Counted from the stretch's first letter, positions 24,891 through 43,428 are shown. The stretch: 62,695 nt of DNA from a candidate division WOR-1 bacterium RIFCSPHIGHO2_01_FULL_53_15 (GCA_001772335.1 METM01000027.1:21776-84470); one strand, 5' to 3'. The notes: generated from the sequence alone by a model not told the origin. Made by a program: numbers and translations.

Positions 24891-24938
24891 AATTCCGGCG
24901 CAAAACTGGCAGAAAAAGTGGGCTTCGGCTTTGGGCAT
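24891..24938 (-). pseudogene. orphan duplicate of the radA 5' end
   Basis: 24906-24934 matches radA 24028-24056 at 26/29 nt. It would read MPKAEAHFFCQFCAGI* versus radA MIASKPETHFLCQSCGNEF. It keeps the same short spacing to the preceding stop codon as radA itself: 6 nt here and 7 nt at radA. Confidence 0.6.
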
Positions 24939-24944
24939 ATCCTG

Positions 24945-25172
24945 TTATAAAAGACCGGCCAAATCTTCAAGGCCTATTCCAGCATCACGAATCAGCTTTC
25001 GAATAAGCCCTTTGCCTAATTCTTTGTGGCGTGGAATCGTCAATGGCTTTTTGGCCTTATCGCTCTGATGATGCATCCGGACATGGCTCCCCTTCTGCCG
25101 GCTTATTTCATAGCCCAATTTCTTGAAACATCCGATCGCTTTGTCTCCGGAGAGTGTCGGCAACTTAGGCAT
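24945..25172 (-). CDS. hicA: HicA-family toxin
   Basis: LSGDKAIGCFKKLGYEISRQKGSHVRM.H......LTIPRHKELGKGLIRKLIRDAGI is canonical HicA/YcfA. Confidence 0.85.
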   Translation of the reverse strand: MPKLPTLSGDKAIGCFKKLGYEISRQKGSHVRMHHQSDKAKKPLTIPRHKELGKGLIRKLIRDAGIGLEDLAGLL

Positions 25173-25401
25173 GTGAAAGAGTTAAAAAACTGATCTCTTT
25201 GGGGTTGTAGCCCTTCAGAATTTCCTTGTTGTTCTTTTCCTCGAGGCAAAGATCGATCACTTCTTTAATGTTCTTAATCGCCGCGTCCAGCGTCCTGCCT
25301 TGAGTGTAACAGCTTTTAAAGATCGGACATTCGACAACATAATAGCCGTCCTCATCTTTTTCAACAATAATCGGCAGAAAGTGTTTCATAGTCATTGACA
25401 C
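25165..25401 (-). CDS. hicB: HicB-family antitoxin
   Basis: IIVEKDEDGYYVVECP....CYTQGRTLDAAIKNIKEVIDLCLEE. Overlaps hicA by 8 nt. Confidence 0.8.
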   Translation of the reverse strand: MSMTMKHFLPIIVEKDEDGYYVVECPIFKSCYTQGRTLDAAIKNIKEVIDLCLEEKNNKEILKGYNPKEISFLTLSHA

Positions 25402-25481
25402 CTCCAGTTTTGATTATATCATTCTCATCTCAAATATTCCATCTAACTGAAATTTCCCCGCTCCAACAAGGATATAAAGGC

Positions 25482-26408
25482 ATGAACATCAGCGCCGCCA
25501 TCCTCCTTTACAACACCCACCTCTTCGGCGACACGCTGCCGATCATGTCTGAGAAACACACCCATGAGGATAAGTTCCGCGCCTTCGCTATTGCTGATGC
25601 GGTTGAAGCCACCGATGCCGATGTCGTACTGCTGACCGAGGTCTGGGATAAAAATCTTGCTAAAATCATCCTGGCCCAAACTGCCGACCACTACCCCAAT
25701 AGCTACCTGCCGGAACAGCGTAATATTTTTGGCTTTGGCAGCGGTCTGCTGATCCTAAGCAAGTTTGCCATCATTGATCCCTCCACAACCAAATACAGCT
25801 GGCTGATCGGCAGCGATATTTTTTCTCAAAAGGGCTTTATCGTGGCTAATCTGGATCTCCCCGGCGGCCCGCTGGGACTTTTCCTCACCCACGTCCAATC
25901 GCACAACGGACTGCTTGAATATGTACAAGCACGCGCGTCAAATCTAAAACAATTAGCGGAAGCGGTCGCGGCCTATAAACAGGTTCACCCTGCCCGGCCC
26001 GTCCTTGTGGCCGGCGACCTCAATGTTGTGGCAGAAGAACCTGGTCAACCGACAAAGGAATATAAGGCCATGACCGAATTGTTTGGCGGAAGAAAGCTGA
26101 TTGACCTGGCGCGCCAATTCTACCCCAACTCCCAGGCCTGGCCCGGTTTCACCTATGATTCACTGCATAATACTCTGATCCCTCAATTTAACCCGGAAAT
26201 TGCGGAAGACCATGGCCAGGAACGTATTGATTACTTTTTCGGCACGCCAGACATCAAGCCCATCGCCATCACAACTGACCCGGCCAATAACCAGAGCGTT
26301 TTCAAGTCCGATTACCGCTATAACAGCGGCACGGATAATTTATCGGATCATTTCCCGCTGCTGCTGGAAGTCATCGTCAAGCCTGAAGCTTCTCCTGCCG
26401 GACGCTAA
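25482..26408 (+). CDS. endonuclease/exonuclease/phosphatase (EEP) family protein
   Basis: DVVLLTEVW, VAGDLN and C-terminal LSDHFPLLLE motifs. The start is taken at the internal ATG 25482 after AAGG. Confidence 0.7.
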   Translation: MNISAAILLYNTHLFGDTLPIMSEKHTHEDKFRAFAIADAVEATDADVVLLTEVWDKNLAKIILAQTADHYPNSYLPEQRNIFGFGSGLLILSKFAIIDPSTTKYSWLIGSDIFSQKGFIVANLDLPGGPLGLFLTHVQSHNGLLEYVQARASNLKQLAEAVAAYKQVHPARPVLVAGDLNVVAEEPGQPTKEYKAMTELFGGRKLIDLARQFYPNSQAWPGFTYDSLHNTLIPQFNPEIAEDHGQERIDYFFGTPDIKPIAITTDPANNQSVFKSDYRYNSGTDNLSDHFPLLLEVIVKPEASPAGR

Positions 26409-28982: not shown

Positions 28983-29036
28983 GCAACCCGGGCGCAAGTT
29001 TTCACCGGTTTGAGCCGATATTTACTATATAGAGCC

Positions 29037-29255
29037 ATGTGCGCGCAAGATATGAACGAACTGAATATTGACGGGACCGCCCAGCTGACGATCGGGGACA
29101 CCACCTATCGGACGGGGGGCAACATTCTCTTTGAAAAAGACGAAGGCAAATATTATTCGGCTGAAAGCACAGTGATGGAAAAGATGAACAAGGCCGCCCA
29201 GGCCAGCATCGTGGAAAACGGCATGCAGTCGCTGCTCAAAAAGATCCGCGGCTAG
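29037..29255 (+). CDS. small hypothetical protein
   Basis: 72-aa ORF in the clpC/DUF2779 intergenic region. No motif recognised. Confidence 0.2.
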   Translation: MCAQDMNELNIDGTAQLTIGDTTYRTGGNILFEKDEGKYYSAESTVMEKMNKAAQASIVENGMQSLLKKIRG

Positions 29256-29272
29256 ATTACAAATCGCTCTCC

Positions 29273-30751
29273 TTATATTCCTCTATTCCTCAAACTGGCC
29301 AAAATATCGATCATCGCTTGCGTATCAAGCTGACAATATTTCTCAAGCGCCGTACGGACTTTTTGAAGGTCCTTTGGATCGAAATTTTCACCAAAGGTGA
29401 CCCTGGCATATTCCCGGCTGGCCGTCCCGCCATCGGCGATCTCCATCCCCTTATAGCTGGAATCAGTCAGAGCGGGAAGAACATACTTTAGGGACGCGCT
29501 TCCCTCTTGCGCAGGATGATAGTAACTAAAACCGCGGAAAGGGACGATCAGATCAATAAAGCGCTTCTCCAACCGGCTAACCCAACTTATGTAGTCAGGA
29601 TAGGCTTTCGCCGATTTTTTCAGACAATTGATCTCAAAATGCATGTTCCAAGCAAGGACTGTTCCAGAACTGCCTAAAAGCGACTTTAGAAGTCGTAAAA
29701 TCTCCGGCCGCGGATCAACATCCCCCGGCGCCAGATAAGGATGATGGACAGGCTTACCGCCCTCTTTTTCAATGACGTGCAGGGAGAATTGGAAGGGGAT
29801 CCACTCATAAGGGTGGGTCAGATCATAAACCGGAACAGCAGGGTTAATTGTTTCAAAATCAAGCAGGTATAACGGATATTTTAGCTCGTCTAGAAAATCC
29901 CCGATCCCCTCCTTATCAATATGCGCTTTACCCGAACGATGGCTCTTAACTTGAATGAGCTGTTTGTCATTAAGATCGTCAAGCGGGATGTCGGTTAGCT
30001 TTAATATTCCCTGATCCAGCAGGGCGAATAAACGCTCTTTCCGGCCACGATAAAGCTGGAAGATATCGCCTTTTGGTAAAAATTCCCAACAAAGCCCCTC
30101 TAACGGACAAGGGTACGGATCCCCGCAATGCGGGCCGATCTTGACCTTTGGCTCCTGGCCAGCCATTATCGCCAGCGTCTCTTCTATCGATTTCTCCAAA
30201 CCTTGCCGGTACGGTTTGATCTTTTCAGTAATATCCACTTTGGTAAACAGCTTCTTGGGCTCAACTGGACCTTTTCGGAGATACTCTGTATTAATATGCA
30301 TCAGGTAACAGTGGCGGACCTTTAGTCCAGCACCGGAATAGACATATTTCTGGAAAGCCGTGTCGATTAGATGTTGTTCCTCAACGTCGGTCCCGCTTTT
30401 AACTTCAATAATATCCCAGGCGTTGTTTTCGACCGGGACAAGAATATCAGGCAAGGCATAAGTCCGGCCGTAGATCAGGCCGGCTTCAAAGAGCGGTTTG
30501 CGCAGCTTAAGGGCTTCTATCGACTTGGCGTGTGTTAGCTCCGGCATATTCTCACGGCCGATCAGGATTCCCTCCGGGTATAACTTGCGGGCTAATTCGC
30601 CGACAAGCGTCCCCTGATCGAAGATCGCCTGCGTTGCCGGGTCTGTCTCGCCAAACGCTTCCCTTTTATTAAAATCGCACCAGAGCAGCTTTGAACACTT
30701 TACTCCGTTAAGATACTTCGATTTTGAGAGGAATGGTTGGGGTTTAGGCAT
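29273..30751 (-). CDS. DUF2779 domain protein (Cas4/RecB-like nuclease N-terminus)
   Basis: LSKSKYLNGVKCSKLLW N-terminus and D..EVK nuclease-like core (WDIIEVKSG), typical of DUF2779. Confidence 0.7.
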   Translation of the reverse strand: MPKPQPFLSKSKYLNGVKCSKLLWCDFNKREAFGETDPATQAIFDQGTLVGELARKLYPEGILIGRENMPELTHAKSIEALKLRKPLFEAGLIYGRTYALPDILVPVENNAWDIIEVKSGTDVEEQHLIDTAFQKYVYSGAGLKVRHCYLMHINTEYLRKGPVEPKKLFTKVDITEKIKPYRQGLEKSIEETLAIMAGQEPKVKIGPHCGDPYPCPLEGLCWEFLPKGDIFQLYRGRKERLFALLDQGILKLTDIPLDDLNDKQLIQVKSHRSGKAHIDKEGIGDFLDELKYPLYLLDFETINPAVPVYDLTHPYEWIPFQFSLHVIEKEGGKPVHHPYLAPGDVDPRPEILRLLKSLLGSSGTVLAWNMHFEINCLKKSAKAYPDYISWVSRLEKRFIDLIVPFRGFSYYHPAQEGSASLKYVLPALTDSSYKGMEIADGGTASREYARVTFGENFDPKDLQKVRTALEKYCQLDTQAMIDILASLRNRGI

Positions 30752-30780
30752 TATTTATTCTTAAACCATCCTTTAACTGA

Positions 30781-30827
30781 TCCATCATCCCATACTCCGT
30801 CATATCACAATGGAGCGGCGTGATGGA
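30781..30827 (-). repeat. surE 3'-end remnant A
   Basis: 45/47 nt identical to surE 34978-35024. Flanks still read WLTGEV-ISITPLHCDMTEYGMMDQLK. Confidence 0.85.
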
Positions 30828-30850
30828 GATAACCTCACCCGTCAACCAGT

Positions 30851-32305
30851 TCATATCAAAAAGAAATACTCCAATGGGACCGTAACAATGTTATTGCTTT
30901 GATCATAATTAAGCAAAGCGTTAGTTATCAACAGGCCAAAAGCCCCTTTTTTTCTTCTCATTGTCCCGATCACCTGATCCGCATCCCTCTTTCCCCAGCC
31001 AACTTCTATCACAACTCTCTTACCGCCGATCTCCAGGATAAAATCCGCCCCACCCTTGGCTGAATCGTAACTTAAGGCAAATAGCGGCTGGCCGCCATAT
31101 TCACGCTGCAGGCAGGCTCCAACCGCATCCTCAAGCAGCTTCCCTTTGTACTTCAGGTCGATCGCCTTGGAATCGATAATGTTCAGGAGCGCCGCACGGA
31201 TGCTCGGGGCCGCAAATAAATATTTCGACGGCTTGCGCACTTTTTTCCCGATCGACCCGTAAGGATAGACCCGGATCAATAGTTCTGACTTTTCCAGCAC
31301 CGCTAAAACACCTCGCAAAGTCCTCGGATCAATATTCTCAACTCCCCTGACCATGGTCGGCAAACTCATTTCATCAAAACCCGCCAGCATAAAGAGCACC
31401 CGCTGGATCTGCGCCGATTTTTCCGCGGTGAAACTTTTTAGCAAGGGGACGTCCCGCTCCACGATCCGGTCTACGACCATGTTGAGAATACTGTAAATTT
31501 GCGCCTCTTCTTTATACAGCAGCGTGCACGGCAATGAATAATATTTCAGGTATTTACCAATCATTAATGGATCGATCTCCTGCCAGTATGCCCTGACAGC
31601 CGTCTGCAGGAATAATAACCGATCATAAGCGGCCCTGGAGTTATCAGAGCTGAAAAGCGCGTCCTTTATCTGGTAGCCCAATTTAGGCGGAAACCTGGTA
31701 TTTTGCCCTTCAGCGCGAAAAGTTGAGATCATTGCGTATTCAGTGAACTTCAGCGGATACATTTTCTCAAATAAGGCGCGCCGCGCAATGTCCGTGTTGA
31801 CGTTCAAAGCAACCGCTGAAGAGCCGGTCGCGATAATAAAAACATTCTTTGTCCGGTCATATAACGTTTTGAGGGCAAACGCCCATTTTTTATCATATTG
31901 GACTTCATCAACCAACAGCAACACTTTCTCCTTCATTGCCGAGAGCCTCTCTCCCAGCAATTCCTGGTACGCGTCTATAACTTCGTAAAGATTGCTATTG
32001 ATCCGATTGACCACGTCATCGAGCGAAATGTAGATAATTCTGTTTGGAAAATCCCCCTTGAAACGCTGAAAAAGCTGGGCCAGGACCGTTGTTTTCCCTA
32101 CTCCGCGCAATCCCGGTATAACAATCCAGCGCGGCTCCGCGCTCTGCGCTAAAAAGTCCTTGATCTGCTTTTCCAGACGATAATAGATAAAACGCTTAAG
32201 GAGCGGCTGCCCCTTTTCACTGCTGGAGATCTGACGCAGGACACCTGTTTCTTCTGACAGCTGGTTGCTAACATATTGCTTAATTAAATCTGCTTCGGCA
32301 AACAC
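30851..32305 (-). CDS. AAA-family ATPase of the AAA_14/DUF4143 type
   Basis: Walker A PGLRGVGKTT, Walker B LLLVDEVQ, and a C-terminal nuclease-like tail (GADFILE..VVIEV). GTG start after GGGAGGGG. Confidence 0.7.
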   Translation of the reverse strand: MFAEADLIKQYVSNQLSEETGVLRQISSSEKGQPLLKRFIYYRLEKQIKDFLAQSAEPRWIVIPGLRGVGKTTVLAQLFQRFKGDFPNRIIYISLDDVVNRINSNLYEVIDAYQELLGERLSAMKEKVLLLVDEVQYDKKWAFALKTLYDRTKNVFIIATGSSAVALNVNTDIARRALFEKMYPLKFTEYAMISTFRAEGQNTRFPPKLGYQIKDALFSSDNSRAAYDRLLFLQTAVRAYWQEIDPLMIGKYLKYYSLPCTLLYKEEAQIYSILNMVVDRIVERDVPLLKSFTAEKSAQIQRVLFMLAGFDEMSLPTMVRGVENIDPRTLRGVLAVLEKSELLIRVYPYGSIGKKVRKPSKYLFAAPSIRAALLNIIDSKAIDLKYKGKLLEDAVGACLQREYGGQPLFALSYDSAKGGADFILEIGGKRVVIEVGWGKRDADQVIGTMRRKKGAFGLLITNALLNYDQSNNIVTVPLEYFFLI

Positions 32306-32327
32306 TATGTGCCCCTCCCGCCACTAT

Positions 32328-32353
32328 ATTTTATTTACTATGGTATGACATTA
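32328..32353 (-). promoter_or_regulatory. conserved promoter-like element P1
   Basis: Minus strand: TAATGTCATACC-ATAGTAAA-TAAAAT, upstream of the AAA ATPase gene. Overlaps the perfect palindrome CATTACTATAGTAATG. Confidence 0.55.
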
Positions 32354-32440
32354 CTATAGTAATGCCAAGCGCAACATTTTCAGCGTTTTTATAACTATTA
32401 TTCATTGCTTTTCTATCCCACCGGCCAACATTTTAACTGT

Positions 32441-32489
32441 TCTATATAATTATACTCCGTCATGTCACAATGGATAGGGCGCAACAGGA
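32441..32489 (-). repeat. surE 3'-end remnant B (degenerate)
   Basis: The central 23 nt match surE at 21/23. It reads ...PIHCDMTEYNYIEQLK. Confidence 0.65.
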
Positions 32490-32495
32490 TTTTCA

Positions 32496-33032
32496 TTATT
32501 CCTCAATCTCAACCTCCCCTTCGCGATTAACTCTTAAAGAATTAAACTCGATATCGCCTTTTTTAATAGTTGACTGAATTGATTTAAGAATTTTTTCTTG
32601 TTTGCCATTATGCGGCTCATAAGCGACAAAATCAATGCTCTTTATTCTTTCACTTTCAGAATTCATGCCGTCAAATACAATAAAATCAACCGGATCAAAG
32701 ATCGTTTTAACATCCTGCGGATCTATTCCCTTCCCGGAAAAAAGCGGATCAATCTCTTTAAGCCTGCGTTTCGCTAATAACTGCCCTTTTCTCCTTGCTT
32801 TTTCCTGCTCCATGATCATCAACTCATCAAATCGTATTTCATAAGCTTCTTTACGCTGCTCTGCTTTTACAACTTTATTTTCATATTGTTTCAATTTTAA
32901 AAATTGATCATCCTTTTTCTCTCTTGAAGGGAACCGGAATTTTGCGTCAGAAAGATGAAATATCTCGCCGCAGCACGGGCAAACACCATAGATAGCCTGG
33001 AACTCATCGATAAGGTCTAATAACTTATTCAT
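32496..33032 (-). CDS. Zn-ribbon / coiled-coil / Holliday-junction-resolvase-like endonuclease family protein (paralogue 2)
   Basis: CPCCGE..F N-terminal ribbon, a charged coiled coil, and a C-terminal DPVDFIVFDG...I..IDFV module. The internal ATG 33032 overlaps the upstream stop by 8 nt. Confidence 0.5.
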   Translation of the reverse strand: MNKLLDLIDEFQAIYGVCPCCGEIFHLSDAKFRFPSREKKDDQFLKLKQYENKVVKAEQRKEAYEIRFDELMIMEQEKARRKGQLLAKRRLKEIDPLFSGKGIDPQDVKTIFDPVDFIVFDGMNSESERIKSIDFVAYEPHNGKQEKILKSIQSTIKKGDIEFNSLRVNREGEVEIEE

Positions 33033-33543
33033 CCTTGACCACCTCGAGATTGACCCTGCCACCCCTGACAATCCGCCTAATATCCTTCTGCGAATCTGAA
33101 AGCACCGCATTCCCTGATTTAACATCAATAAAAGAAATGAGATCAACCTTATTCTTGCTGGCCAGGTTGTTAAAAATAATATAATCGATCGGCTCATACA
33201 AAGCTCGGCAATCCTTAATATTATAAGGAAAACCACTAAATGAAGGGACTATCTTTTCCACGATTTTACCGAAATTCACTCCTGCCGTTGTGGCTTTTAT
33301 TCTTTTAGGCTTCTCGATTTTTTTGGTTCGCAATTTTTTCCTTTCCGCCTTAACCGTTGCCACGCGCAAATCCAAATCGGTCCATGTTTTATCATATGTC
33401 CTTTTTATCTTCTGGGGCAACTCCTCCTTAATTGAAAACATATTTGCTGATCGCGGGTAAAAACTTTCTTCGCAAGCGGGGCATTCTAATTTCAGGCCTT
33501 TGATACGCTCGATCTGTCTTATAATATCGCCTTTTCTACTCAT
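33025..33543 (-). CDS. Zn-ribbon / coiled-coil / Holliday-junction-resolvase-like endonuclease family protein (paralogue 1)
   Basis: CPACEE..F ribbon, a basic coiled coil, and EPIDYIIFN...V.LISFIDVKSGNAVLS..Q..I...V..G, resembling the archaeal Hjc-related endonuclease family. Confidence 0.5.
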   Translation of the reverse strand: MSRKGDIIRQIERIKGLKLECPACEESFYPRSANMFSIKEELPQKIKRTYDKTWTDLDLRVATVKAERKKLRTKKIEKPKRIKATTAGVNFGKIVEKIVPSFSGFPYNIKDCRALYEPIDYIIFNNLASKNKVDLISFIDVKSGNAVLSDSQKDIRRIVRGGRVNLEVVKDE

Positions 33544-33567
33544 TTATAATTTCCCCCTTTTAACTGA

Positions 33568-33598
33568 TCCATCATCGCATACTCCGTCATATCGCAAT
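33568..33598 (-). repeat. surE 3'-end remnant C
   Basis: 31/31 nt identical to surE 34978-35008. It reads CDMTEYAMMDQLKGGNYK*, and its TGA overlaps the next ATG. Confidence 0.85.
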
Positions 33599-33605
33599 CG
33601 GCACC

Positions 33606-34208
33606 TTATGCTTTCCTTCTCACCTCTGATAATGCGCGGTCAATAGGTTCAATAAAAAGCGCAAGATTATTGAACGCATCCATGATGTTCTCTGCAAATG
33701 TCCCTTTTCTAAGTATTTCTATCCATTCATCTGGGGACTGCTTTAATTCATAGTAAAAAATAAAATCATTATCGCTTTCAATTTTAATGCCTTTAAAACT
33801 ATTTTTTGCTTTTTCTGCAGCTAAATTAAAGGTTTCAGCGAATTTTGCGGGTTTATCTATTTTTGTCCTAATCTTCTCTGACCATATCCCGGCATTTGGA
33901 TGTTCATCGGCCGTCCCCATTAACCCATCCAAACTAATTTTGCCAACCCAAAGCGATACATGATCCCATTTATCTGTCCCAATTTTCCATGATTTTTTGC
34001 ATATTCCGACTTCGCTGTAGTTAGAATAAAACATTGGGGCTTCAAACTGTTTCTTGTCCCACCATTCACTTTCGATCAGTCTTGCTTTAACTTCATTCTG
34101 CAGACATGAAGCCATATTCCCTTCAATATCATTTACGCAATTAATTAATTTTGCAGTGTCCCCCCAATTTTCCAGCAGAAACGTCTCATGTTCTTTCGTT
34201 TTCTTCAT
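33606..34208 (-). CDS. hypothetical protein
   Basis: 200-aa ORF overlapping the preceding nuclease-like gene by 23 nt. No motif recognised. Confidence 0.45.
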   Translation of the reverse strand: MKKTKEHETFLLENWGDTAKLINCVNDIEGNMASCLQNEVKARLIESEWWDKKQFEAPMFYSNYSEVGICKKSWKIGTDKWDHVSLWVGKISLDGLMGTADEHPNAGIWSEKIRTKIDKPAKFAETFNLAAEKAKNSFKGIKIESDNDFIFYYELKQSPDEWIEILRKGTFAENIMDAFNNLALFIEPIDRALSEVRRKA

Positions 34209-34947
34209 CTCTGTCCTCCTTTATGCTTTTATTGATCCTAATGATATTATTTTCGATACATTCCTTATACTGTTCCGCCACCCATTTAGTTTTTTCTGCC
34301 TCAGCCATACGCGCAAAATCGTTTAGGCAGCGAACCATGGTATCCCACCCGACCCATGAAAACATCGTTCCCTCAACAACATCGGTAGCATTCTCCTTCG
34401 ACAAGAGAAATCCCCATCTACGTTTTTCATTGATGCCAAATGACTCGGCTCTTTTTATCAAATCCACTTCTTCCCTTTTAAGCTGTTCTTTTGTGGGTTT
34501 CATGCCGACCTTGTTTTCGATATGTATAATAAATCTATTCATTGTTTTTCTGATAATCTCGATATCTATCCTTGATTCATCCCCTGAAACTTCTTTCTTA
34601 ACACAGAAATCGGGCCCGTCAAGTATTTCCACGGGCAACCTTTTTTCCCTAATGAAAATACTAAAGAACAGGTCTTTTTGCGCATGAGTTTCTGTTGGGT
34701 CTAACAACCAAGCGAGAAATTTACTGTGTTTCATCTCATCATATGTAAAACCAAGAATATCTAATATGTTGATTTCTTCGGCATTCTTCCTTTGTTTTTC
34801 CCGGACTCCTTTAAGCATCTCTATAAATTGATTAATATATTTTTCATTTTCCGCTAATAACGATGAATAATATTTATCTTCAAGCTCAACAAACGAAGAC
34901 AATGTTCTTTTAAAGCGGCTTACTAATTGCAATGCGGTTTCAGGCAT
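34186..34947 (-). CDS. PD-(D/E)xK nuclease superfamily protein
   Basis: HSKFLAWLLDP ... ESRIDIEI ... FIIHIENKV is the D...E.K arrangement seen in stand-alone PD-(D/E)xK families. The ATG overlaps the surE TAA (TAATG). Confidence 0.55.
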   Translation of the reverse strand: MPETALQLVSRFKRTLSSFVELEDKYYSSLLAENEKYINQFIEMLKGVREKQRKNAEEINILDILGFTYDEMKHSKFLAWLLDPTETHAQKDLFFSIFIREKRLPVEILDGPDFCVKKEVSGDESRIDIEIIRKTMNRFIIHIENKVGMKPTKEQLKREEVDLIKRAESFGINEKRRWGFLLSKENATDVVEGTMFSWVGWDTMVRCLNDFARMAEAEKTKWVAEQYKECIENNIIRINKSIKEDRDEENERT

Positions 34948-35711
34948 TATTTGCTTTTATACCATTCTTTGATTTGTTCCATCATCGCATACTCCGTCAT
35001 ATCGCAATGGAGCGGCGTGATGGAAACATAACCTTGATTGATCGCATCAATATCACTATCCTGCTCGCCTTCCAGGTCAATAACCTCACCAGACAGCCAG
35101 TAATAAATCCGGCCGTGAGGATCGGTCCGCTTGTCGAATTTCTCGATAAAGGCTCGCTTGCTCTGCCGCGTAATCTTAACGCCTTTTACCTTTGACTTCA
35201 CCACCGCTGGAACATTGACATTAAGCAGTATCCCTTTCGGTAAACCTTTTTTAATGACCATTAAGGCTATCTTGCGAGCAAATTGGGCGGCAAAAGTATA
35301 ATCGGGCTTAGTAAATGTCCCCAGGGAGATCGCCATTGAAGGAATACCAAGGATAACGCCTTCCGTCGCACCCGATACTGTCCCCGAATAAAGGACGCTG
35401 AAGCCGGTATTGGGGCCGAGATTGATCCCGGAGATGACGAGGTCAGGTTTTTGCTTGAGGATCGCCCGGACCGCTAGCTTAACGCAATCGGCCGGCGTGC
35501 CAGTAGTTGAGTAAATATTTTTGTCCAACTGGTTGACCCGGAGAGGATCAGAGAGGGTGATCGCGTGACCGACCGCGCTCCGTTCGCTGTCGGGGGCGAC
35601 GATCGTGACATCCCCTATTCCCTTAACCGCTTTGTAGAGCGCCTGGATCCCGGCAGCGCTGATGCCGTCATCGTTAGTTAGAAGTATGCGCGGCTTACGC
35701 TTCCTAATCAT
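34947..35711 (-). CDS. surE: 5'/3'-nucleotidase SurE
   Basis: ILLTNDDGI..AGI, SGINLG.N and GYVSITPL motifs. Confidence 0.92.
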   Translation of the reverse strand: MIRKRKPRILLTNDDGISAAGIQALYKAVKGIGDVTIVAPDSERSAVGHAITLSDPLRVNQLDKNIYSTTGTPADCVKLAVRAILKQKPDLVISGINLGPNTGFSVLYSGTVSGATEGVILGIPSMAISLGTFTKPDYTFAAQFARKIALMVIKKGLPKGILLNVNVPAVVKSKVKGVKITRQSKRAFIEKFDKRTDPHGRIYYWLSGEVIDLEGEQDSDIDAINQGYVSITPLHCDMTEYAMMEQIKEWYKSK

Positions 35712-35752
35712 AAATTAAATTTTACTCTGTACACTGCCCAATAACAAGGCAG

Positions 35753-36169
35753 TTAGCGTTCGCCATTCTGGGCCTCGAGATAGACCTGCCGCCAGGCTTC
35801 CCGATCGATCGCCTCCTGCTCGAATTCATCCGTGGTTTTGACTGGATATAGAAGTGAATTCAATTCCCAGAGCTCTTCCGAGGTAAAGCTTGCCAGCCCT
35901 TTCCCCTGATAATATTCCCGCCACCGCGTCAGCTTCGGCTTGTCCCGCGGCGCCCGTCCATCGATCAAAAGCTCGACCTCTTCGCAACGGTTGAGGAATT
36001 TATTCGCTTTCCAGCGCTCCTTTTCGTCCAGATAAAAAAGGACCCAGCCTGTTTCGGGATCGATCGTCCATTTTTCGATCTTCAATTCCATTAAAAGCGC
36101 CTGGACAAAACCATCCTTTGGAATATCACCTAATTTGACTATCGCTTCAATAGTCTCGTCTTCCATCAT
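35753..36169 (-). CDS. hypothetical protein
   Basis: 138-aa ORF overlapping the upstream gene by 4 nt. No motif recognised. Confidence 0.45.
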   Translation of the reverse strand: MMEDETIEAIVKLGDIPKDGFVQALLMELKIEKWTIDPETGWVLFYLDEKERWKANKFLNRCEEVELLIDGRAPRDKPKLTRWREYYQGKGLASFTSEELWELNSLLYPVKTTDEFEQEAIDREAWRQVYLEAQNGER

Positions 36170-36381
36170 TCAACCTCCGCCCCGCATTGGGCGCATTTGA
36201 GCGTTGAGGAGATAATGTCCAGGTCCGGAGAGCCGCCGGAGAGAACCAGCCCCGATCTCCCTTTTGAGATCGACACTTCTTCCCGATAATTCGCCATCCC
36301 CTCATTGATGAACGAACTGCTCCCGCACGCGCAGGTATAAGTTTCGTTTTCTTCTTTTTGTTTAACTTTTTTCTTTGCCAT
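36166..36381 (-). CDS. small Cys4 zinc-ribbon protein
   Basis: MAKKKVKQKEENETYTCACG...(42 aa)...CAQCGAEVE. The internal ATG 36381 overlaps the ClpX-like 3' end by 20 nt. Confidence 0.4.
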   Translation of the reverse strand: MAKKKVKQKEENETYTCACGSSSFINEGMANYREEVSISKGRSGLVLSGGSPDLDIISSTLKCAQCGAEVE

Positions 36382-37396
36382 TGTTATTTGCCTCCTGTTT
36401 ACCAATATCGAACATCCGGTCCTCAAAAAACCGCCTGACCAGCGGGCCGACACAGCGCCCGCCCATTGCCTCGTGCGCTTTTGAAGCGGTGACGATCAAG
36501 TGAATTATCTCGGTATAGACGCCGGCTTCCTCGCCCGATATGGGAACATAGAAATTATACTCCTCCACTTCTTGCCTGATAAGCTGCTTGACCGCTTCCC
36601 CGTCAAGCGGCTCCAGGCGGATAATATTGCCGAGCCGATTGGCAAATTCCGGGATAAAGCCGTAGCGGACCAGGTCTTTATTATTTATTTCCTCTTTTTC
36701 TGCCAAACGGCCAAACGCCCCGCCAAAGATAAAGAGCACATTGCTGAAGTTAAACTTTTCCCGGTCATACTCCGTGTGGTCCGGCTCATAATAAACCTCC
36801 CCGCCGTCAATAATAGGGAGTAAATCTTGCTGGACGCCGCTGCCGGCAAAATCATCATCGCACCCCCAGCAGTTTCTGATCTTATCGATCTCGTCAATAA
36901 AGACGATCGCCCATTGAGCCTGTCGCCTTTGCTCTTTAGCCGAGGCCCGCAGCAGATCAACGATCTGTTCCGCGTGCATCCCGCCGCGGTAGCCCCGCTG
37001 GGTAAAATTAGTCGCATCAAGCTTTAGGTAAGGGACTTCGGCAATATCGGCCAGCGCCTTGGCCAGCATCGTCTTGCCGCAGCCGGACGGGCCGATCAGC
37101 AGCGCGTTCGTCTTGGGCAGCTGTTTCCCTTCTCGGGCCAACGCATAACGCTTGAGATGCTGGTAAAGGATGACCGACAAACTTTTTTTGGCCTCCGCCT
37201 GCCCCAGGACAGTTTTATTTAGCTCCTCGCAGATCTTTGACGGCGGGATGACAGGGTCATCAGCAAAAAGCTTCTCCTGCCTGGTGAGATTTTCCCGCCG
37301 ACCGCCCGCCGGCTCCTTTTCCGGCGCCACCAGCCCGTCAAACGCCCTGGCGATATCTTCTGCCGACAATAACTCTTTTTCCGACATTTTAAACAC
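36362..37396 (-). CDS. ClpX-like AAA+ ATPase lacking the N-terminal zinc-binding domain and the IGF-loop region
   Basis: L...V.GQ..AKK.LSV..Y.H.KR, Walker A IGPSGCGKTMLAKALA, pore-loop GYRGG, FIDEIDKI, GVQQDLLPIIDGG and GFIPEF.NRL all parallel ClpX. There are no N-terminal Cys residues and only a short segment where the IGF loop would sit. Confidence 0.7.
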   Translation of the reverse strand: MFKMSEKELLSAEDIARAFDGLVAPEKEPAGGRRENLTRQEKLFADDPVIPPSKICEELNKTVLGQAEAKKSLSVILYQHLKRYALAREGKQLPKTNALLIGPSGCGKTMLAKALADIAEVPYLKLDATNFTQRGYRGGMHAEQIVDLLRASAKEQRRQAQWAIVFIDEIDKIRNCWGCDDDFAGSGVQQDLLPIIDGGEVYYEPDHTEYDREKFNFSNVLFIFGGAFGRLAEKEEINNKDLVRYGFIPEFANRLGNIIRLEPLDGEAVKQLIRQEVEEYNFYVPISGEEAGVYTEIIHLIVTASKAHEAMGGRCVGPLVRRFFEDRMFDIGKQEANNNGKEKS

Positions 37397-37406
37397 CTCC
37401 GGCTAT

Positions 37407-37432
37407 ATTATAAAGGGAGCACAGTGACATTA
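37407..37432 (-). promoter_or_regulatory. conserved promoter-like element P2
   Basis: Minus strand: TAATGTCACTGT-GCTCCCTT-TATAAT, then a leader with GGAGG before the ClpX-like ATG. The plus strand shows the near-palindrome TGACATTATGTGTCA. Confidence 0.55.
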
Positions 37433-37521
37433 TGTGTCATGGTCAAGCAGATGCGCTTTAGGCAGATAGCGAACTCGGGCCCTGGCCGTTTCCAGATCGC
37501 TGATATATTCGTGGACTACTT

Positions 37522-37788
37522 TTACCACGCCCAGCCGCCCAGCTCCCGGAGGTCTTTTAGCGCCGGGCCTTTCAGGAACGAAAAAAGAAGAACTTTCTTG
37601 TGCTGGAAGGCAAACCCTTTTAAGGCGTAGGTCATCCCAAGTAAATAATCCTTGATCCGCCTCGCCTCCTCTTTGTTGACCGCTTGCTCCAGTGAAACGA
37701 GGATCTTGCCCGCCTTGCGGTATTTAATCGCCGCCTTTTTCCCCTCGTCATAATCCTTCGGACAATAGATCCTTGATATTACCGGCAT
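37522..37788 (-). CDS. hypothetical protein
   Basis: 88-aa ORF overlapping the upstream gene by 10 nt. Confidence 0.35.
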   Translation of the reverse strand: MPVISRIYCPKDYDEGKKAAIKYRKAGKILVSLEQAVNKEEARRIKDYLLGMTYALKGFAFQHKKVLLFSFLKGPALKDLRELGGWAW

Positions 37789-38633
37789 ATTTCCCCTCCT
37801 TTTTTCTTTTTCCCCGGCGGATCAAAAAGCTCCCAGAGTTGCCGGGGATCATTTAATGAGATCAGCCATTTTCCGCTTCTCATGTTTTTTAATATTTCGA
37901 AGACAACTTTTTGCGGCCGCTTGGACCTGTCCCTCTCCCAGTAGAGCCGGCAGAGGTATTGCACCAGAGGGGCGCAGCTCGCTACCTCCCGGGAGAGCTC
38001 GGCGCCGTTTTCCGTTTCCAGCGCGTTGACGGTAATAATAACAGCGGCATTATATTCTTCGGCCAGCCGCTTGATCTCTTTAACTGCCTTTTGGAGAAGT
38101 CCGGAGCGAAGCGCGGCACGATCACCTTGTTCGGGATAGTATTCGTAGATATAATCGATAGAGTCAATTATCACCAGCCAGGCCGGGATCTTTCTGGCAT
38201 GTTTCTCAACAGGGTCCATCGCCCTGACCTTTTCGGCCGGTTCTTCGTAAGCATATTTCTGGAATAGCAGTTCCATCTCGCTTGGTCTGGCCTCATCTAT
38301 CTCCTCACAGGAAACGCCTTGCACCGGTTCGATATAAAGGGGCGCTTTGGCGCCCGCGCCTGACAGACGATTGGCGATATTTGCCGGCCTTGATGAGGTC
38401 AAATAGAGCGTTTTGATGTTATTTTTGACCGCGCAAAACAGGGCGGCAGAGACGCAGAAGGCGGTTTTACCGGCCGCGTGCGGAGCAGAAACCGCCATAA
38501 TCTCCCCCGGCTCCATGCCGCCGCTCGCCTGGCTAATTAAACGCGCTCCGGTAAATATCGACTCTTTCTTACGCGCTTTTTCGATCTTTTCGGCAGCCAG
38601 TATCTCTTTTATTTTCATAGCGGGCGCCTCCAT
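37779..38633 (-). CDS. RecA-fold ATPase resembling the DnaB helicase C-terminal domain
   Basis: GGMEPGEIMAVSAPHAAGKTAFCVSAAL (Walker A) and VIIDSIDYI (Walker B-like). There is no DnaB N-terminal domain. Confidence 0.55.
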   Translation of the reverse strand: MEAPAMKIKEILAAEKIEKARKKESIFTGARLISQASGGMEPGEIMAVSAPHAAGKTAFCVSAALFCAVKNNIKTLYLTSSRPANIANRLSGAGAKAPLYIEPVQGVSCEEIDEARPSEMELLFQKYAYEEPAEKVRAMDPVEKHARKIPAWLVIIDSIDYIYEYYPEQGDRAALRSGLLQKAVKEIKRLAEEYNAAVIITVNALETENGAELSREVASCAPLVQYLCRLYWERDRSKRPQKVVFEILKNMRSGKWLISLNDPRQLWELFDPPGKKKKGGEICR

Positions 38634-38639
38634 ATGCTA

Positions 38640-38665
38640 TTTATACCATGGGCGGTATGACATTA
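38640..38665 (-). promoter_or_regulatory. conserved promoter-like element P3 (leaderless layout)
   Basis: Minus strand: TAATGTCATACC-GCCCATGG-TATAAA, then 6 nt before the ATG at 38633. Confidence 0.6.
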
Positions 38666-38671
38666 ATTGTC

Positions 38672-39418
38672 TTAGCGGTTCAAGATAGTTTTTGCCAGAG
38701 CAAGAGTGGGTTTTTTACCGGCGAGGGAAGCGTAGGCGGCGACCCTGATCAGGGCGCCCTCAAGCGCCCTGATGTTTGTAGTAATCCTTTTTACCAGATA
38801 AGCAAGCACTGCGGCGGGGACTTTATAATTTCCCAGTTTTGCTTTATTTTTTAAGATAGCAAGCCGCGTCTTAATTTCCGGCTGTTTGATCTTAACAATA
38901 GTCCCATGCTTAATAACCGGCAACTGGCACAACTTTTGGCTAAATATCGTGCCAGGCGGCCGGTCGCTCGTGATCACTATCTGTTTGCCCAATTTATACA
39001 ATTCGCTCAAAATGCCGATCAGCTCGCCCGCAGTCCGCTCCTTATGCCGCACAAATTGAAGATCGTCCAAAAGGAAGATGTCAGGGGCGCAATACTTCTT
39101 TCGGAAGCTATTATATTTGCCCAGCCGGAAAGCTTTAACAAGATCGCTGACGAATCTTTCCGTTGACACATAAGCGACTTTGCGCGGCGGCCTCTTATTT
39201 AAAATATAATTACCGATGGCCCACATTAAATGCGTTCTCCCCAACCCTTCCCCTCCGGTAATAAATAACGGGTTGTGCCGCTTCTCCAGCCCCCTGGCGA
39301 CATCAAGCGCCGCTTTAAAAGTGACGCGATTGGACGCGCCAACAACAAACGAGCTAAAAGCATATCTTTTGTAACGCCCATCCTTTTTCAGGTAAATACT
39401 ATTATCAAAGCTTTTCAC
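38672..39418 (-). CDS. DnaA domain-III-only (Hda-like) AAA+ protein with Walker-A Lys replaced by Arg
   Basis: FSSFVVGASN..A...A, NPLFITGGEGLGRTHL, LLDDLQF, ITSDRPP and the box VII/VIII-like NIRALEGALIRV. It ends where DnaA domain IV would begin. Confidence 0.7.
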   Translation of the reverse strand: MKSFDNSIYLKKDGRYKRYAFSSFVVGASNRVTFKAALDVARGLEKRHNPLFITGGEGLGRTHLMWAIGNYILNKRPPRKVAYVSTERFVSDLVKAFRLGKYNSFRKKYCAPDIFLLDDLQFVRHKERTAGELIGILSELYKLGKQIVITSDRPPGTIFSQKLCQLPVIKHGTIVKIKQPEIKTRLAILKNKAKLGNYKVPAAVLAYLVKRITTNIRALEGALIRVAAYASLAGKKPTLALAKTILNR

Positions 39419-39442
39419 GATCGCCTCATTTTCTTGCCCGCA

Positions 39443-39655
39443 TCAGTTTTTAGCTTTTATCTGCGCGATGAGCTCTCTTGCCTCACCTACGCGCTGCTTG
39501 TTATCCAGATACGCATTTCTCATCGTCTTCGCCAGACCAATCAAACCGTTTAAGCTCTCGCTCATGGATCTGTCCAGGGCATCGATATTGTTATCGATCC
39601 GGGAAAGATTTTCCAACAGAATCTCTGTCCGGTCATTTCCTCGCTTTTTTCGCAT
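39443..39655 (-). CDS. small coiled-coil hypothetical protein
   Basis: 70-aa ORF downstream of element P4. Confidence 0.35.
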   Translation of the reverse strand: MRKKRGNDRTEILLENLSRIDNNIDALDRSMSESLNGLIGLAKTMRNAYLDNKQRVGEARELIAQIKAKN

Positions 39656-39779
39656 GGCACACCCCCTCCACCCTATATAAACGTTTTATTTTTCCAAAAA
39701 ACTAAACTGGCGCCACTTTTTCGCGGCTTTATGCTTAATTTATTTTTCAAACTGGCGGCATCAGAATAATATATACCAT

Positions 39780-39805
39780 GGGCGGTGTGACATTAATGGG
39801 CAGGG
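39780..39805 (-). promoter_or_regulatory. conserved promoter-like element P4
   Basis: Minus strand: TAATGTCACACC-GCCCATGG-TATATA. It shares a 27-nt block (26/27 identical) with P3. Confidence 0.55.
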
Positions 39806-39815
39806 GATGCGGTAT

Positions 39816-40628
39816 TTATTTCTTTATTTTATCGCCAAGCCACTGGAGATCTTTATCGCTCCACCAGCGGCAAGCAAAATGGGGAACGACAAATATACGC
39901 GGCCTTAGAGCAGCGAAGCTAAGCATCGTGCAACCCTTACCGTTATGTTTATTGATCCTAATTTCCTGGCATTCATTTTCTTTCCCTTCGGCAAACACAG
40001 AAATATATTCTTTGGTATGCAATCTGCCAAAGCACAACACAAAATCAATATGCTCCCTGTTCTTATCGAACATCTCCTTCAACCGCCCAAATCTATTACT
40101 TTTGCACCATTTGTAATATTCTTCCTTGTCTTTCATGCCGGTTACTGTTTTTTCGGCCTCGCTAAAAGTAGTTGTTGTTTTTGGAAAATCAAGGGGATAT
40201 AGATTTACCTGAAAAGTATCCCCATTTTGGCATTTAGCGGTAAATAATTTTTTGGAAATATATTCCTGCCAATACTCTTTCCAGTTATTGCTATTTTCTA
40301 TCTGAGCAATCACCTTTGCCATTTTTTGGCATGTCCGCCAGCTTGTATATTTACCGTTGCGTTCGTCATTATATTTCAATTTGAAGTTATCATCCCATTC
40401 CATAGGCACTTGATCACGACTGAATCTTTCGTTTTCACTCCGGATTTGATCGACTAATCCTTTGTGCCTGTTATCCTTTGTCTTTTCATCAACTTTTCTG
40501 CCGTATTCAACACCGCTAAACCAATATTTGCCCCCGGGATTGCCCACCATGCCGGAATAGCTTAACGCCCATTCCTCAAATTCATTATTTACATGATATT
40601 CATGAGAATTTGTGTCATCATTATTCAT
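39816..40628 (-). CDS. hypothetical protein
   Basis: 270-aa ORF whose ATG overlaps the stop of the HEAT-like gene (ATGA). No motif recognised. Confidence 0.45.
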   Translation of the reverse strand: MNNDDTNSHEYHVNNEFEEWALSYSGMVGNPGGKYWFSGVEYGRKVDEKTKDNRHKGLVDQIRSENERFSRDQVPMEWDDNFKLKYNDERNGKYTSWRTCQKMAKVIAQIENSNNWKEYWQEYISKKLFTAKCQNGDTFQVNLYPLDFPKTTTTFSEAEKTVTGMKDKEEYYKWCKSNRFGRLKEMFDKNREHIDFVLCFGRLHTKEYISVFAEGKENECQEIRINKHNGKGCTMLSFAALRPRIFVVPHFACRWWSDKDLQWLGDKIKK

Positions 40629-40870
40629 TGATTTTTTTCTCCTTGCTTAAATTGTATCATACCAGCCGCCTCCCTCACCAGATAATGCTCATCAAGAGCC
40701 AGGCGGCGTAAAACCTTAAGCGGGCATTTCTTATGCTTCGCCACTTTTTTTCGCACCGGAAAGAACTCGTCGCGACTAAGCCGAGCTAAGATGCCGGCGG
40801 TTGCGGACGGATTGGCGGCGGCCGCTTCCCTGACCGGCCATGACTCATCACGGGAAAAGCGCTCTAACAT
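40625..40870 (-). CDS. HEAT/leucine-rich-variant-like repeat protein
   Basis: Repeated D(E)..PVR..AA motifs (DESWPVREAAA, DEFFPVRKKVA, DEHYLVREAA). Confidence 0.45.
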   Translation of the reverse strand: MLERFSRDESWPVREAAAANPSATAGILARLSRDEFFPVRKKVAKHKKCPLKVLRRLALDEHYLVREAAGMIQFKQGEKNQ

Positions 40871-41034
40871 ATCCAGCGGGATCCGCCTGTCCCTGATCGC
40901 TTGAGCCCTTTGGCTTTGGCCCAGGCCTTTGTCCGCTGCGTCTTCCCCTGACCTGTACCACCCCAGAGAAACGGCGTCACGTATATCCCCTCGCTATTTT
41001 TCTGCCATAAGACATCCAGCGCTTTTTCGATCAT
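40864..41034 (-). CDS. 56-aa P-loop fragment (not in the ORF track; possible frameshifted N-terminus of the HEAT-like gene)
   Basis: GGAGG-N7-ATG, then MIEKALDVLWQKNSEGIYVTPFLWGGTGQGKTQ..., i.e. beta-strand plus Walker A, terminating 56 codons in. The HEAT frame is open across its 3' half. Confidence 0.3.
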   Translation of the reverse strand: MIEKALDVLWQKNSEGIYVTPFLWGGTGQGKTQRTKAWAKAKGLKRSGTGGSRWIC

Positions 41035-41118
41035 GTTGATTGCCTCCGGAAGTTATTATAAATGAGCCACCCTGACAGAAAGTGGCAGGGGGTTGTGGTA
41101 TAATAAATATCAAGCAAC

Positions 41119-41826: not shown

Positions 41827-41830
41827 TTAT

Positions 41831-42418
41831 ATGGATGACAAAGGCAATAATGTGATTGATTTAATCAGGCAGATGGAAAAACTATATATTGAGATCTCAA
41901 GGCTGATTAAATGTTTTGATAAAAATATCCAAAAGAGAGGATATCTCCTCCCTTCAAGCTCCTCATCTGTAATAAAAGATATTTCACAATCATTAAATGC
42001 GCCAGAAAATTGGCTCCCAATGTGGTTATATCGCAACTACCAAAACAACGCCAACAAAGAAGTATTATCCTTGAATATCGCCCTAGATTATCCTGAGTTC
42101 CCTGAAAGGATAAATGAGCCATTAGTCCTTGTCGCGAAATTTAGCGGTAAAAAAGTTGATCTTGATCATGCGTGGTATCCATGGGATATATATTTTCATT
42201 TCAGGCCATTAACAAAGCGGTACAATAAAATATACCTGCTTAAGGATTTTAACCTTAATGATAATGATACTTTGGAAGAGTTATCCGACTGGTCAAAGGA
42301 AGAAAAAGAAAATCTGACAAATCACTTTAAAGCCATTAGTTTTATTGCCGCACCCCTGATGGAGATGAGCGATGAAAAGAACATTATCAAATTCATTGAT
42401 CCCATTTTTAATCAATAA
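41831..42418 (+). CDS. hypothetical protein
   Basis: The internal ATG 41831 lies directly after the upstream stop. 195 aa, no motif recognised. Confidence 0.45.
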   Translation: MDDKGNNVIDLIRQMEKLYIEISRLIKCFDKNIQKRGYLLPSSSSSVIKDISQSLNAPENWLPMWLYRNYQNNANKEVLSLNIALDYPEFPERINEPLVLVAKFSGKKVDLDHAWYPWDIYFHFRPLTKRYNKIYLLKDFNLNDNDTLEELSDWSKEEKENLTNHFKAISFIAAPLMEMSDEKNIIKFIDPIFNQ

Positions 42419-42426
42419 TATTTAAT

Positions 42427-43410: not shown

Positions 43411-43428
43411 GGAGGGGATGATTTAATT

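Follow-up and report, generated by a model that had tools for sequence, protein, structure and literature searches.

How does a set of accessory genes come to be stacked behind the 3′ end of a housekeeping gene, each group set off by a remnant of that gene's own terminus, where no recombinase is in view? The question is raised by surE in a 62,695-nucleotide (nt) stretch of DNA from the candidate division WOR-1 bacterium RIFCSPHIGHO2_01_FULL_53_15 (METM01000027.1:21776-84470; hereafter the window, which is this stretch at its full length). A first-pass annotation, made from the sequence alone, had read the locus as an array of cassettes left by repeated site-specific insertion that regenerates a gene end. 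As detailed below, three units of the array were indeed inserted behind surE, and the surE end was regenerated. Nevertheless, we tentatively attribute the array to duplication of surE by homologous exchange, with later truncation of the duplicates, and not to a cassette recombinase.

The array is headed by an intact surE of 254 amino acids (aa; 34947-35711, minus strand; Pfam SurE, E 2.2e-65), the product of which has its closest homologues in Candidatus Omnitrophota, and all array genes are co-oriented with it on the minus strand. Its stop codon overlaps the ATG of the next gene (TAATG). The duplicated segment of this resident gene (34936-35101, minus), delimited by the repeat families D1, D6, and D13 and by alignments, begins with WLSGEV, takes in a core of 47 nt (34978-35024) and the gene's tail, and ends about 14 nt after the stop (ATGCCTgAAACCgCA). 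Unit A then encodes a PD-(D/E)xK nuclease of the PDDEXK_4 family (253 aa; 34186-34947, minus; Pfam E 1.9e-19) and, with a 23-nt overlap, an open reading frame (ORF) of 200 aa without a known family (33606-34208, minus). It is followed by surE relic 1, or copy 1 (33540-33602, minus), in which GCCG(-ctcc) and 31 nt equal to the resident gene lead into the tail DQLKGGNYK and a stop; the stop of its 16-codon ORF (33590-33540) overlaps the ATG of unit B (ATGA). Unit B holds two Hjc-related endonuclease genes of family PF10107 that overlap by 8 nt, encoding Hjc1 (172 aa; 33025-33543, minus; Pfam E 1.1e-21) and Hjc2 (178 aa; 32496-33032, minus; Pfam E 4.8e-10). Relic 2, or copy 2 (32413-32496, minus), is a mini-surE ORF of 27 codons in which the N terminus MKILL is joined to RPIHCDMTEYNYIEQLKCWPVG and a stop, and its ATG overlaps the stop of Hjc2 (TAATG). 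After 107 nt of noncoding DNA (32306-32412), unit C encodes an AAA_14/DUF4143 ATPase of 484 aa (30851-32305, minus; Pfam AAA_14 E 2.2e-26, DUF4143 E 4.7e-11). Relic 3, or copy 3 (30740-30854, minus), reads WLTGEV, a 54-nt deletion, ISITPLHCDMTEYGMMDQLK, and a 1-nt frameshift, and its 36-codon ORF (30854-30744) overlaps the ATPase stop with its ATG (ATGA) and the start of the last gene with its stop (ATGCCTAA). That gene encodes a DUF2779 protein of 492 aa (29273-30751, minus; Pfam E 5e-35; domain at residues 295-420). The GC content of the units (37, 39, 47, and 48%) makes the block lower than its surroundings, as surE has 50.5% and clpC 60%.

The surE 3′ core was found at four places on this one strand, as the first-pass annotation had claimed, with a repeat search and a pattern scan in agreement. 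The repeat family D1 comprised 30769-30827, 32429-32487, 33556-33614, and 34966-35024, all on the minus strand, and a 24-nt core pattern with at most 3 mismatches matched exactly four sites in the window against 0.00 expected from 100 shuffles, which rules out chance repeats. Copy 1 (33568-33598) agreed with the resident gene at 31/31 positions and copy 3 (30781-30827) at 45/47; copy 2 was as degenerate as described (29/49, ungapped). AAATAATGCCT was present at both junctions where it had been reported, as was ATGA at 33540-33543. Two details had to be amended. Copy 3 lacks 18 codons of the resident gene, rather than 16, between two otherwise colinear surE segments, and the similarity of copy 3 to the resident gene extends from WL(S/T)GEV to about 14 nt past the surE stop and so enters the start of the next gene; this homology beyond surE covers the first ~14 nt of DUF2779. 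The codon changes that set the relic tails apart from that of the resident gene are synonymous or conservative (EQIK versus DQLK), and by this measure the tails look like alleles of a real gene rather than a recombination core; the shared CAGTTAAA is likewise a codon-level variant of the surE tail and not an integron core site. The 200-aa ORF was rejected as a decayed surE, since hhalign gave a probability of 0.3% and a weak tblastn match came from the adjoining in-frame relic. A search with the 36-aa relic ORF against 1.8 billion representative proteins returned only the self-match, the query being too short to inform.

Because the repeats are short, and because three shorter contigs with the same SurE end within Hjc1, the array might have been the product of a collapsed or chimeric contig, the artefact that the first-pass annotation itself had named as fatal. 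We compared ten contigs with an identical SurE (L001-L010; L numbers denote the loci compared) with window positions 29000-36000. Seven of them cover it from end to end; these come from as many separate assemblies (ENA, NCBI GCA_001771345.1, and JGI), made with different assemblers, and were 99.97-100% identical to the window over all 7,001 nt. Moreover, the repeats (31-59 nt) are shorter than the k = 141 of several of these assemblies, and every copy is diverged. Since seven full-length contigs are near-identical, the array structure is real and fixed in that population, and we regard an assembly artefact as practically impossible.

That the array is an insertion was established by comparison with relatives. 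The window surE belongs to a genus-level clade, formed by a small group of SurE proteins at 78-84% identity that share the N terminus MARKPRILLT and the tail PLHCDMTEY.MM. At two loci of this clade, L092 and L127, with a surE 81-84% identical to that of the window, surE directly abuts DUF2779 through the same AAATAATGCC stop/start overlap (ATAATG), and copy 3 together with the DUF2779 start in the window is colinear with this junction. Therefore, DUF2779 is the ancestral neighbor of surE, whereas units A to C are an insertion of about 4.08 kb (34932 down to 30851) with units of 1.1-1.6 kb each. L092 and L127 thus represent the empty site, relic 3 marks the ancestral surE/DUF2779 junction, and the proposed insertion with a regenerated surE end was upheld; the DUF2779 gene, which had been counted among the cassettes, has to be taken out of them as the ancestral downstream neighbor.

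Other members of the clade showed further states of this junction. At L128, a different, uncoupled ORF of 340 aa lies between the surE tail and the DUF2779 ATG, without any surE duplication. This ORF (L128:830-2123) is coiled-coil-like and belongs to no family; it has taken the place of about 12 nt at the ancestral junction, and the surE tail is shortened to end in GWLD and a stop. Other downstream genes follow surE at L130 and, judged from the short sequence before the contig end, at L091 and L129. The upstream flank of surE is also variable, up to a conserved promoter (TTGCAA-17-TAGAAT), with which the promoter-like TTGTTA-17-TAAAAT upstream of the window surE aligns. The junction was accordingly found empty (L092, L127) or filled by the 340-aa ORF (L128), by the array (window), or by a 283-aa gene (L095), with no mobility genes in any of these states. 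Sequence comparison thus identifies the surE 3′ flank as a gene-gain hotspot in one genus-level Omnitrophota clade. Presence or absence of single units at the repeats, which the site-specific reading had led one to look for, was not found; polymorphism concerned only the junction as a whole (empty, other insert, or array).

What the relics once were became apparent from loci beyond the window. An exact-pattern scan of JGI metagenome contigs yielded 28 matches, about the chance expectation by our estimate; four of them (L115, L103, L095, and L120) were genuine surE-tail relics, and none was an intact surE. The L115 relic adjoins a RhuM/Fic protein, and the L103 relic adjoins three ORF6N-like proteins and a four-helix-bundle protein. 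At L095, a C-terminal relic is followed by the 283-aa gene and then by 12 codons of the surE N terminus, which agree with the window surE at 27/36 nt and are fused in frame to DUF2779. At L120, a native surE promoter precedes 15 N-terminal codons (MARKPRILLTNDDGI) that pass into the last 21 codons at a microhomology, CATCA, and this relic reads as a whole surE gene with one in-frame internal deletion. Copy 2 of the window, with its MKILL|RPIHCDMTEYNYIEQLKCWPVG structure, also retains both ends: MKILL is the exact N terminus of 15 of the 120 Omnitrophota SurE proteins, and the PIH…IEQLK.W tail is of a surE type foreign to the genus. As both its ends are of non-genus type, copy 2 points to one foreign surE as its source. 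N-terminal surE sequence is therefore kept in three relics (copy 2, L120, and L095), and because a site-specific insertion at the 3′ end cannot produce such relics, they imply complete duplicate surE genes that were later cut down. Relics are not a general property of surE loci, which was ruled out by 80 surE loci, mostly from other phyla, without a downstream surE relic.

The core itself proved to be distinguished by identity between particular alleles. When the window surE was compared with its counterparts at L092 and L127, exact matches longer than 20 nt occurred only at the core (37 nt with L092, 51 nt with L127), and outside it the longest exact run is 20 nt. In a comparison of seven surE genes from the clade, nucleotide conservation was not in excess at the core, and with a third-position identity of 0.49-0.65, like that of the rest of the gene, no clade-wide constraint at the nucleotide level was seen. 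RecA-type exchange requires perfect pairing over some tens of bases. As the sole long perfect match between these alleles, the core is where crossovers would be channeled, and such channeling would explain a sharp identity block with different tails without the need for an attachment (att) site.

The borders of the repeats were unequal. Among the seven relics, four left borders (copy 1, copy 2, L115, and L120) fall within about 10 nt of GCCGCTCC, and the three other relics start 21-36 nt further upstream, copy 3 having an extra upstream segment. The resident core (34975-35027) forms an imperfect palindrome of about 50 nt (TTCCATCACGC.GCTCC … GGAGT..GCG.ATGATGGAA) with a predicted fold of -13.5 kcal/mol (z -2.6 on the coding strand and -2.9 on the other), compared with z values of +0.4 and +0.6 for copies 1 and 2 and -0.8 for copy 3. 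Since only the resident core folds better than shuffles, attC-like hairpins were ruled out. Part of the palindrome persists in copy 3 and none of it in copies 1 and 2, and an alignment read by eye shows it disrupted in the orthologues at L128 and L129.

No integrase, transposase, or recombinase of any family was found with Pfam or PHROGs among the scanned ORFs of the window, which comprised all ORFs in 29.3-47.3 kb and, elsewhere in the 62.7 kb, every ORF of at least 150 aa judged real; in this the two scans bore out the first-pass annotation. Nor did the window hold a tRNA or transfer-messenger RNA (tmRNA) gene, and a tRNA or tmRNA target was rejected. A transposon signature was equally lacking, in that there is no transposase, inverted repeats are at chance level, and the duplications measure 50-166 nt and are unequal. 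On reading the four copies, for which no profile search was run, we saw no Xer/dif arms; only the GTTAAA of the XerD arm was shared, in the three relics. A tyrosine integrase of PF00589 was found 3.4 kb downstream of surE at L011, from the Omnitrophota metagenome-assembled genome ELA427, a distant relative. There (L011:2534-7099), surE is followed by two unassigned ORFs, an HTH_3 protein, and the integrase (5928-7028), the contig ending 71 nt after the integrase gene, and no second surE end is visible. L011 may thus carry an integrase-borne island at the same surE flank. Neither the window nor any of the fetched loci encodes a homologue of this integrase, and no viral or proviral contig was found to carry it, the core, or a mimic of the surE end.

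We favor, at a probability of roughly 0.45, homology-driven duplicative accretion at this hotspot followed by truncation of the duplicates, with no cassette recombinase involved. Incoming DNA that carried surE, or its 3′ part, with accessory genes behind it would recombine with the resident surE; it might be a circular molecule integrating by a Campbell-type single crossover, or it might enter by unequal exchange, and in either case two surE copies would come to flank the new genes. Crossovers between surE alleles of about 80% identity would fall in the 37- to 51-nt core, presumably in a RecA-dependent exchange. Long direct repeats are expected to be unstable and would loop the cargo out again. 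In the arrays that survive, the redundant surE would subsequently have been trimmed by microhomology deletions to a relic too short and too diverged to recombine efficiently, and selection for stability may have been joined by selection for coupling, as deletions that keep the frame and the stop/start overlaps would be favored for co-transcription from the surE promoter and for translational coupling. By repetition, three blocks (the PD-(D/E)xK nuclease with the 200-aa ORF, the two Hjc-like endonucleases, and the AAA_14 ATPase) would be stacked ahead of the original surE 3′ end and DUF2779. The GC content, which differs from unit to unit, lends this account further support.

Several points weigh against duplicative accretion. 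No tandem pair of full-length surE genes was observed, the full-length stage being deduced from the relics. The four borders near GCCGCTCC are clustered more tightly than expected from random deletion, which would be in line with crossover at a fixed site, and the 31/31 identity of copy 1 with its sharp switch of tail also resembles an att core. A tyrosine integrase does occur behind surE at L011, and our recombinase search is confined to the 62.7-kb window. The model moreover leaves the origin of the first duplication unexplained, and, to our knowledge, there are few well-documented cases in which circles with short homology integrate naturally in the Campbell manner. Much of this is what would be expected if the units were, or derived from, integrative elements whose attP carried a replacement surE 3′ end, with a tyrosine or serine recombinase that acted in trans or was lost, as in the decay toward the cis-mobilizable elements (CIMEs) called microCIMEs. 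Such site-specific accretion, possible but somewhat doubtful in our estimate, would also account for the regenerated gene end, the distal displacement of old ends, and the single orientation, all of which match e14 at icd with its icdC remnant, and for the palindromic resident core; the L011 integrase lies in a putative island just downstream of surE. CIMEs and microCIMEs free of recombination genes are common in tandem arrays (PMC7563491), and composite islands of the staphylococcal cassette chromosome (SCC) stack at rlmH, bounded by direct repeats (PMC7029136). However, neither a recombinase nor a remnant of one was found in the 62.7 kb, the L011 integrase is without a homologue there or in the fetched loci, and neither the core nor a mimic of the surE end was found on any viral contig. 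The N-terminal surE relics (copy 2, L120, and L095) are incompatible with 3′-end integration, the borders vary by up to ~36 nt with extra upstream surE in copy 3, no hairpin or attC-like site is shared, and the cargo ORFs abut the relics, leaving no space for arm sites. In addition, the L128 insert occupies the same junction without a duplication, and the R-M (restriction-modification) island of L120 has no distal relic. For these reasons, we set aside the site-specific or integron-like integration proposed in the first-pass annotation as the leading explanation. A bolder form of it, that an as yet undescribed cassette system of Omnitrophota uses the surE terminus for attachment, in which cassette-sized, promoterless defense genes are captured, stacked, and expressed from the surE promoter while the enzyme, a trans-acting recombinase or the cargo nucleases, comes from off the locus, is in our judgment unlikely. 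If true, off-locus cassette capture at surE would be a functional analogue of the integron built on the end of a protein-coding gene.

Nucleases in the cargo suggest another route, in which they would cut a surE 3′ end free of cassettes and repair would copy in the cassette with a recoded, immune tail, so that homing genes pile up. Immunity of the target site is known from free-standing homing endonucleases. Units A and B and the DUF2779 unit (D) do carry Pfam nuclease domains, the functional tails differ from the displaced ones by synonymous or conservative changes, and the target would be a conserved motif of a conserved gene. We consider this homing very improbable all the same, because the core, as the most conserved part, is the same in the resident gene and the relics, so that no immunity is visible there; because cargo elsewhere (R-M, RhuM/Fic, and ORF6N) is not nucleolytic in this sense; and because double-strand-break repair does not normally duplicate its target. 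Besides, PDDEXK_4 and the ATPase match candidate defense families, and cleavage by the cargo nucleases is a prediction only. Alternatively, the relics might be by-products without a common mechanism, left by unrelated illegitimate insertions of the homology-facilitated kind while the surE/DUF2779 junction was duplicated locally in tandem. The plain insertion of L128, which replaced ~12 nt without duplication, the seemingly truncated and fused 5′ end of PDDEXK_4, and the variability of both surE flanks in the clade are in keeping with this. Yet seven relics at five independent loci all retain the same 3′ portion of surE, three of them in one array and in the same orientation, and copy 2 belongs to another surE lineage and so did not arise by duplication in place; such a coincidence of independent events is quite unlikely. 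Duplicative accretion with later trimming thus remains the account that we prefer.

Pfam confirmed the families named in the first-pass annotation (SurE, PDDEXK_4, two Endonuc_Holl proteins of PF10107, AAA_14 with DUF4143, and DUF2779), and the Hjc-like pair is paralogous as stated, at a distant 24% identity (E 9e-11). PDDEXK_4 matches the PADLOC candidate defense system PDC-S26 (E 1e-20), the ATPase matches the candidate PDC-S01 (E 5e-29), and residues 18-223 of the DUF2779 protein give a weak N-terminal Cas4 match (PADLOC E 1.3e-5); a defense-like cargo is therefore reasonable on the strength of candidate families. The 200-aa ORF had no match in Pfam, PADLOC, or PHROGs, and the DUF2779 protein had no sequence relative among solved structures; DUF2779 is reportedly listed in a paper on the RNase H-like superfamily. 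The nearest homologues of PDDEXK_4 are ~50% identical, and 8 of 10 aligned ones are longer at the N terminus. It starts with codons from the DUF2779 start, and together with its short N terminus this resembles an illegitimate fusion. Apart from the 107 nt before the ATPase, the only junction without an overlap, the array genes follow one another through the stop/start overlaps described above, and the relic ORFs of 16, 27, and 36 codons bridge their neighbors. Promoter-like and terminator-like matches inside the array were at chance level, including those upstream of the ATPase, so that the promoter element ascribed to this gene was not supported. It is suggestive only, as overlaps are common in this genome, that truncations preserving frame and coupling may have been retained. 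A weaker idea is that the relic ORFs could have a functional start at an internal CDM methionine with a Shine-Dalgarno sequence, which by eye is inconsistent among the relics.

The DUF2779 gene was also examined away from surE. Eight loci of other lineages with a DUF2779 protein 71-74% identical to that of the window sit in other contexts, and the possibility that DUF2779 always travels with a surE relic was rejected, as L121-L126 were free of relics by tblastn, and L131 and L132 were judged so from gene lists only. At L121/122, L123/124, and L125/126, the DUF2779 gene lies at the edge of defense-gene clusters; at L121, L123, and L125 this is the upstream edge, and the clusters are large and include type I R-M, patatin with SMODS (like the cyclic-oligonucleotide-based antiphage signaling system, CBASS), GmrSD, Fic, DUF1016, 23S_rRNA_IVP, and ORF6N. 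At L125, the DUF2779 start and the stop of a WYL gene overlap in the same ATGCCTAA. Island borders may be marked by DUF2779. The mini-surE of L120 (L120:1600-1800) lies at the start of the 199-kb contig Ga0265292_1000081; 3′ of it is a five-ORF type I R-M block (hsdM-, RhuM-, hsdS-, and hsdR-like by eye from translations, plus one unassigned ORF) and then cell-wall genes. Upstream of it is a YhcG/DUF1016 nuclease (Pfam), and tblastn detected no distal surE relic for the R-M island.

Immediately upstream of surE in the window, the co-directional genes of 35753-39418 encode a ClpX-like AAA ATPase (36362-37396; weak PADLOC DolB/IetA matches, PHROG 4339), a degenerate DnaB_C/AAA_25 protein (37779-38633), a DnaA/IstB- or DnaC-like ATPase (38672-39418), and a SepF-like ORF of 88 aa; they could be the remnant of a mobile-element replication module or a system not yet recognized. 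A second accessory block, of low GC content (35-50%), follows further upstream of surE (39400-47900), with a WYL/WCX regulator (42427-43410), an FtsZ_C-like protein of 147 aa (44952-45395), an HD phosphohydrolase (46672-47286), and several family-less ORFs, including one of 132 aa (47452-47850) without a family match that we read as a four-helix-bundle protein. Close copies of the WYL and FtsZ_C-like genes stand beside the surE relic at L095, so that this module may travel with the locus. Between mutL and topA lies an ORF6N-domain gene (10636-11175) with a 4-nt overlap with the topA start; ORF6N genes also occur beside the L103 surE relic and in the L121 island. Adjoining clpC is a low-GC patch (24900-26408; 43-48%) with a HicA/HicB toxin-antitoxin pair (~24947-25395, minus; from the L003 gene calls) and an Exo_endo_phos protein (25395-26408). 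Finally, a group of SLH-SLH, SMC_N-like 745-aa, and 901-aa (faint DUF1491) genes (51107-59000) is syntenic with L121 and L123. The DUF2779 gene lies 4-5 kb from this group at L121 and L123 but ~25 kb from it and on the other strand in the window, and this difference in distance and strand indicates rearrangement around the accessory regions.

Many defense islands and hotspots lack mobility genes, and how they acquire their cargo has largely been deduced indirectly. The surE locus keeps footprints of each gain, in the form of relics of which some have both ends, together with matching empty sites in relatives. It thereby offers a testable mechanism, namely single-crossover or duplicative recombination in a short, perfectly conserved block with subsequent stabilizing truncation, and the leftover mini-ORFs may tie the new genes to a housekeeping promoter, both by co-transcription and by translational coupling. 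Should a trans-acting recombinase prove responsible instead, the locus would represent a new cassette-capture system in a poorly known phylum.

Among the closest known systems is the integrase-mediated insertion of e14/phage 21 at icd of Escherichia coli, in which the element likewise brings a new functional 3′ end, while beyond it the old end survives as a short pseudogene on the same strand. The e14 of K-12 begins 165 nt ahead of the icd stop and has icdC, also of 165 nt, at its opposite end. However, e14 has intE/xisE beside its site, whereas the surE array has no recombinase in 62.7 kb; its units are of 1.1-1.6 kb, three deep, and translationally coupled, and some relics keep the N terminus of the target. 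In streptococci, integrative and conjugative elements, integrative and mobilizable elements, and CIMEs accrete at fda and tRNA-Lys, at gene 3′ ends between att-type direct repeats, many of them without recombination genes (PMC7563491). CIMEs, though, have defined att sites and lie in tandem with, or derive from, integrase-bearing elements; at surE neither such a partner nor an int remnant nor a uniform att border was seen, and the N-terminal relics do not suit such a scheme. SCC composite islands at rlmH (orfX) also stack cassettes at the 3′ end of a housekeeping protein gene, each with a copy of the gene terminus as its boundary (18-nt direct repeats; PMC7029136). They differ in having short, uniform serine-recombinase sites and elements of 3-60 kb, compared with surE repeats of 50-115 nt with unequal borders. 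Some SCC units lack ccr and depend on CcrAB in trans.

Integrase-free gene-gain and defense hotspots between core genes, which turn over by homologous recombination in their flanks, share with surE a variable, defense-like cargo at one junction, the lack of mobility genes, and alleles that are empty or differently filled; defense hotspots of E. coli are reportedly described in a published study. A flank-mediated double crossover at such hotspots leaves no duplicated flank, whereas at surE every gain is marked by a remnant of the neighboring gene, and this implies events that were duplicative or involved a single crossover. As in integron arrays, mostly promoterless ORFs in one orientation are stacked at a fixed site, are expressed from a promoter upstream, and are each followed by a short repeat; unlike in integrons, there is no intI, the repeats are remnants of surE coding sequence and not attC hairpins, and no R′/R″ core is shared. 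There are thus precedents for a protein-gene end that is rebuilt while its remnants are displaced, for accretion in tandem, for units that lack a recombinase, and for hotspots that lack an integrase. What differs at surE is that cassette-sized, translationally coupled units lie behind a housekeeping promoter, that the relics are trimmed whole-gene duplicates, including mini-surE genes with both N and C termini, and that the setting is in the Omnitrophota.

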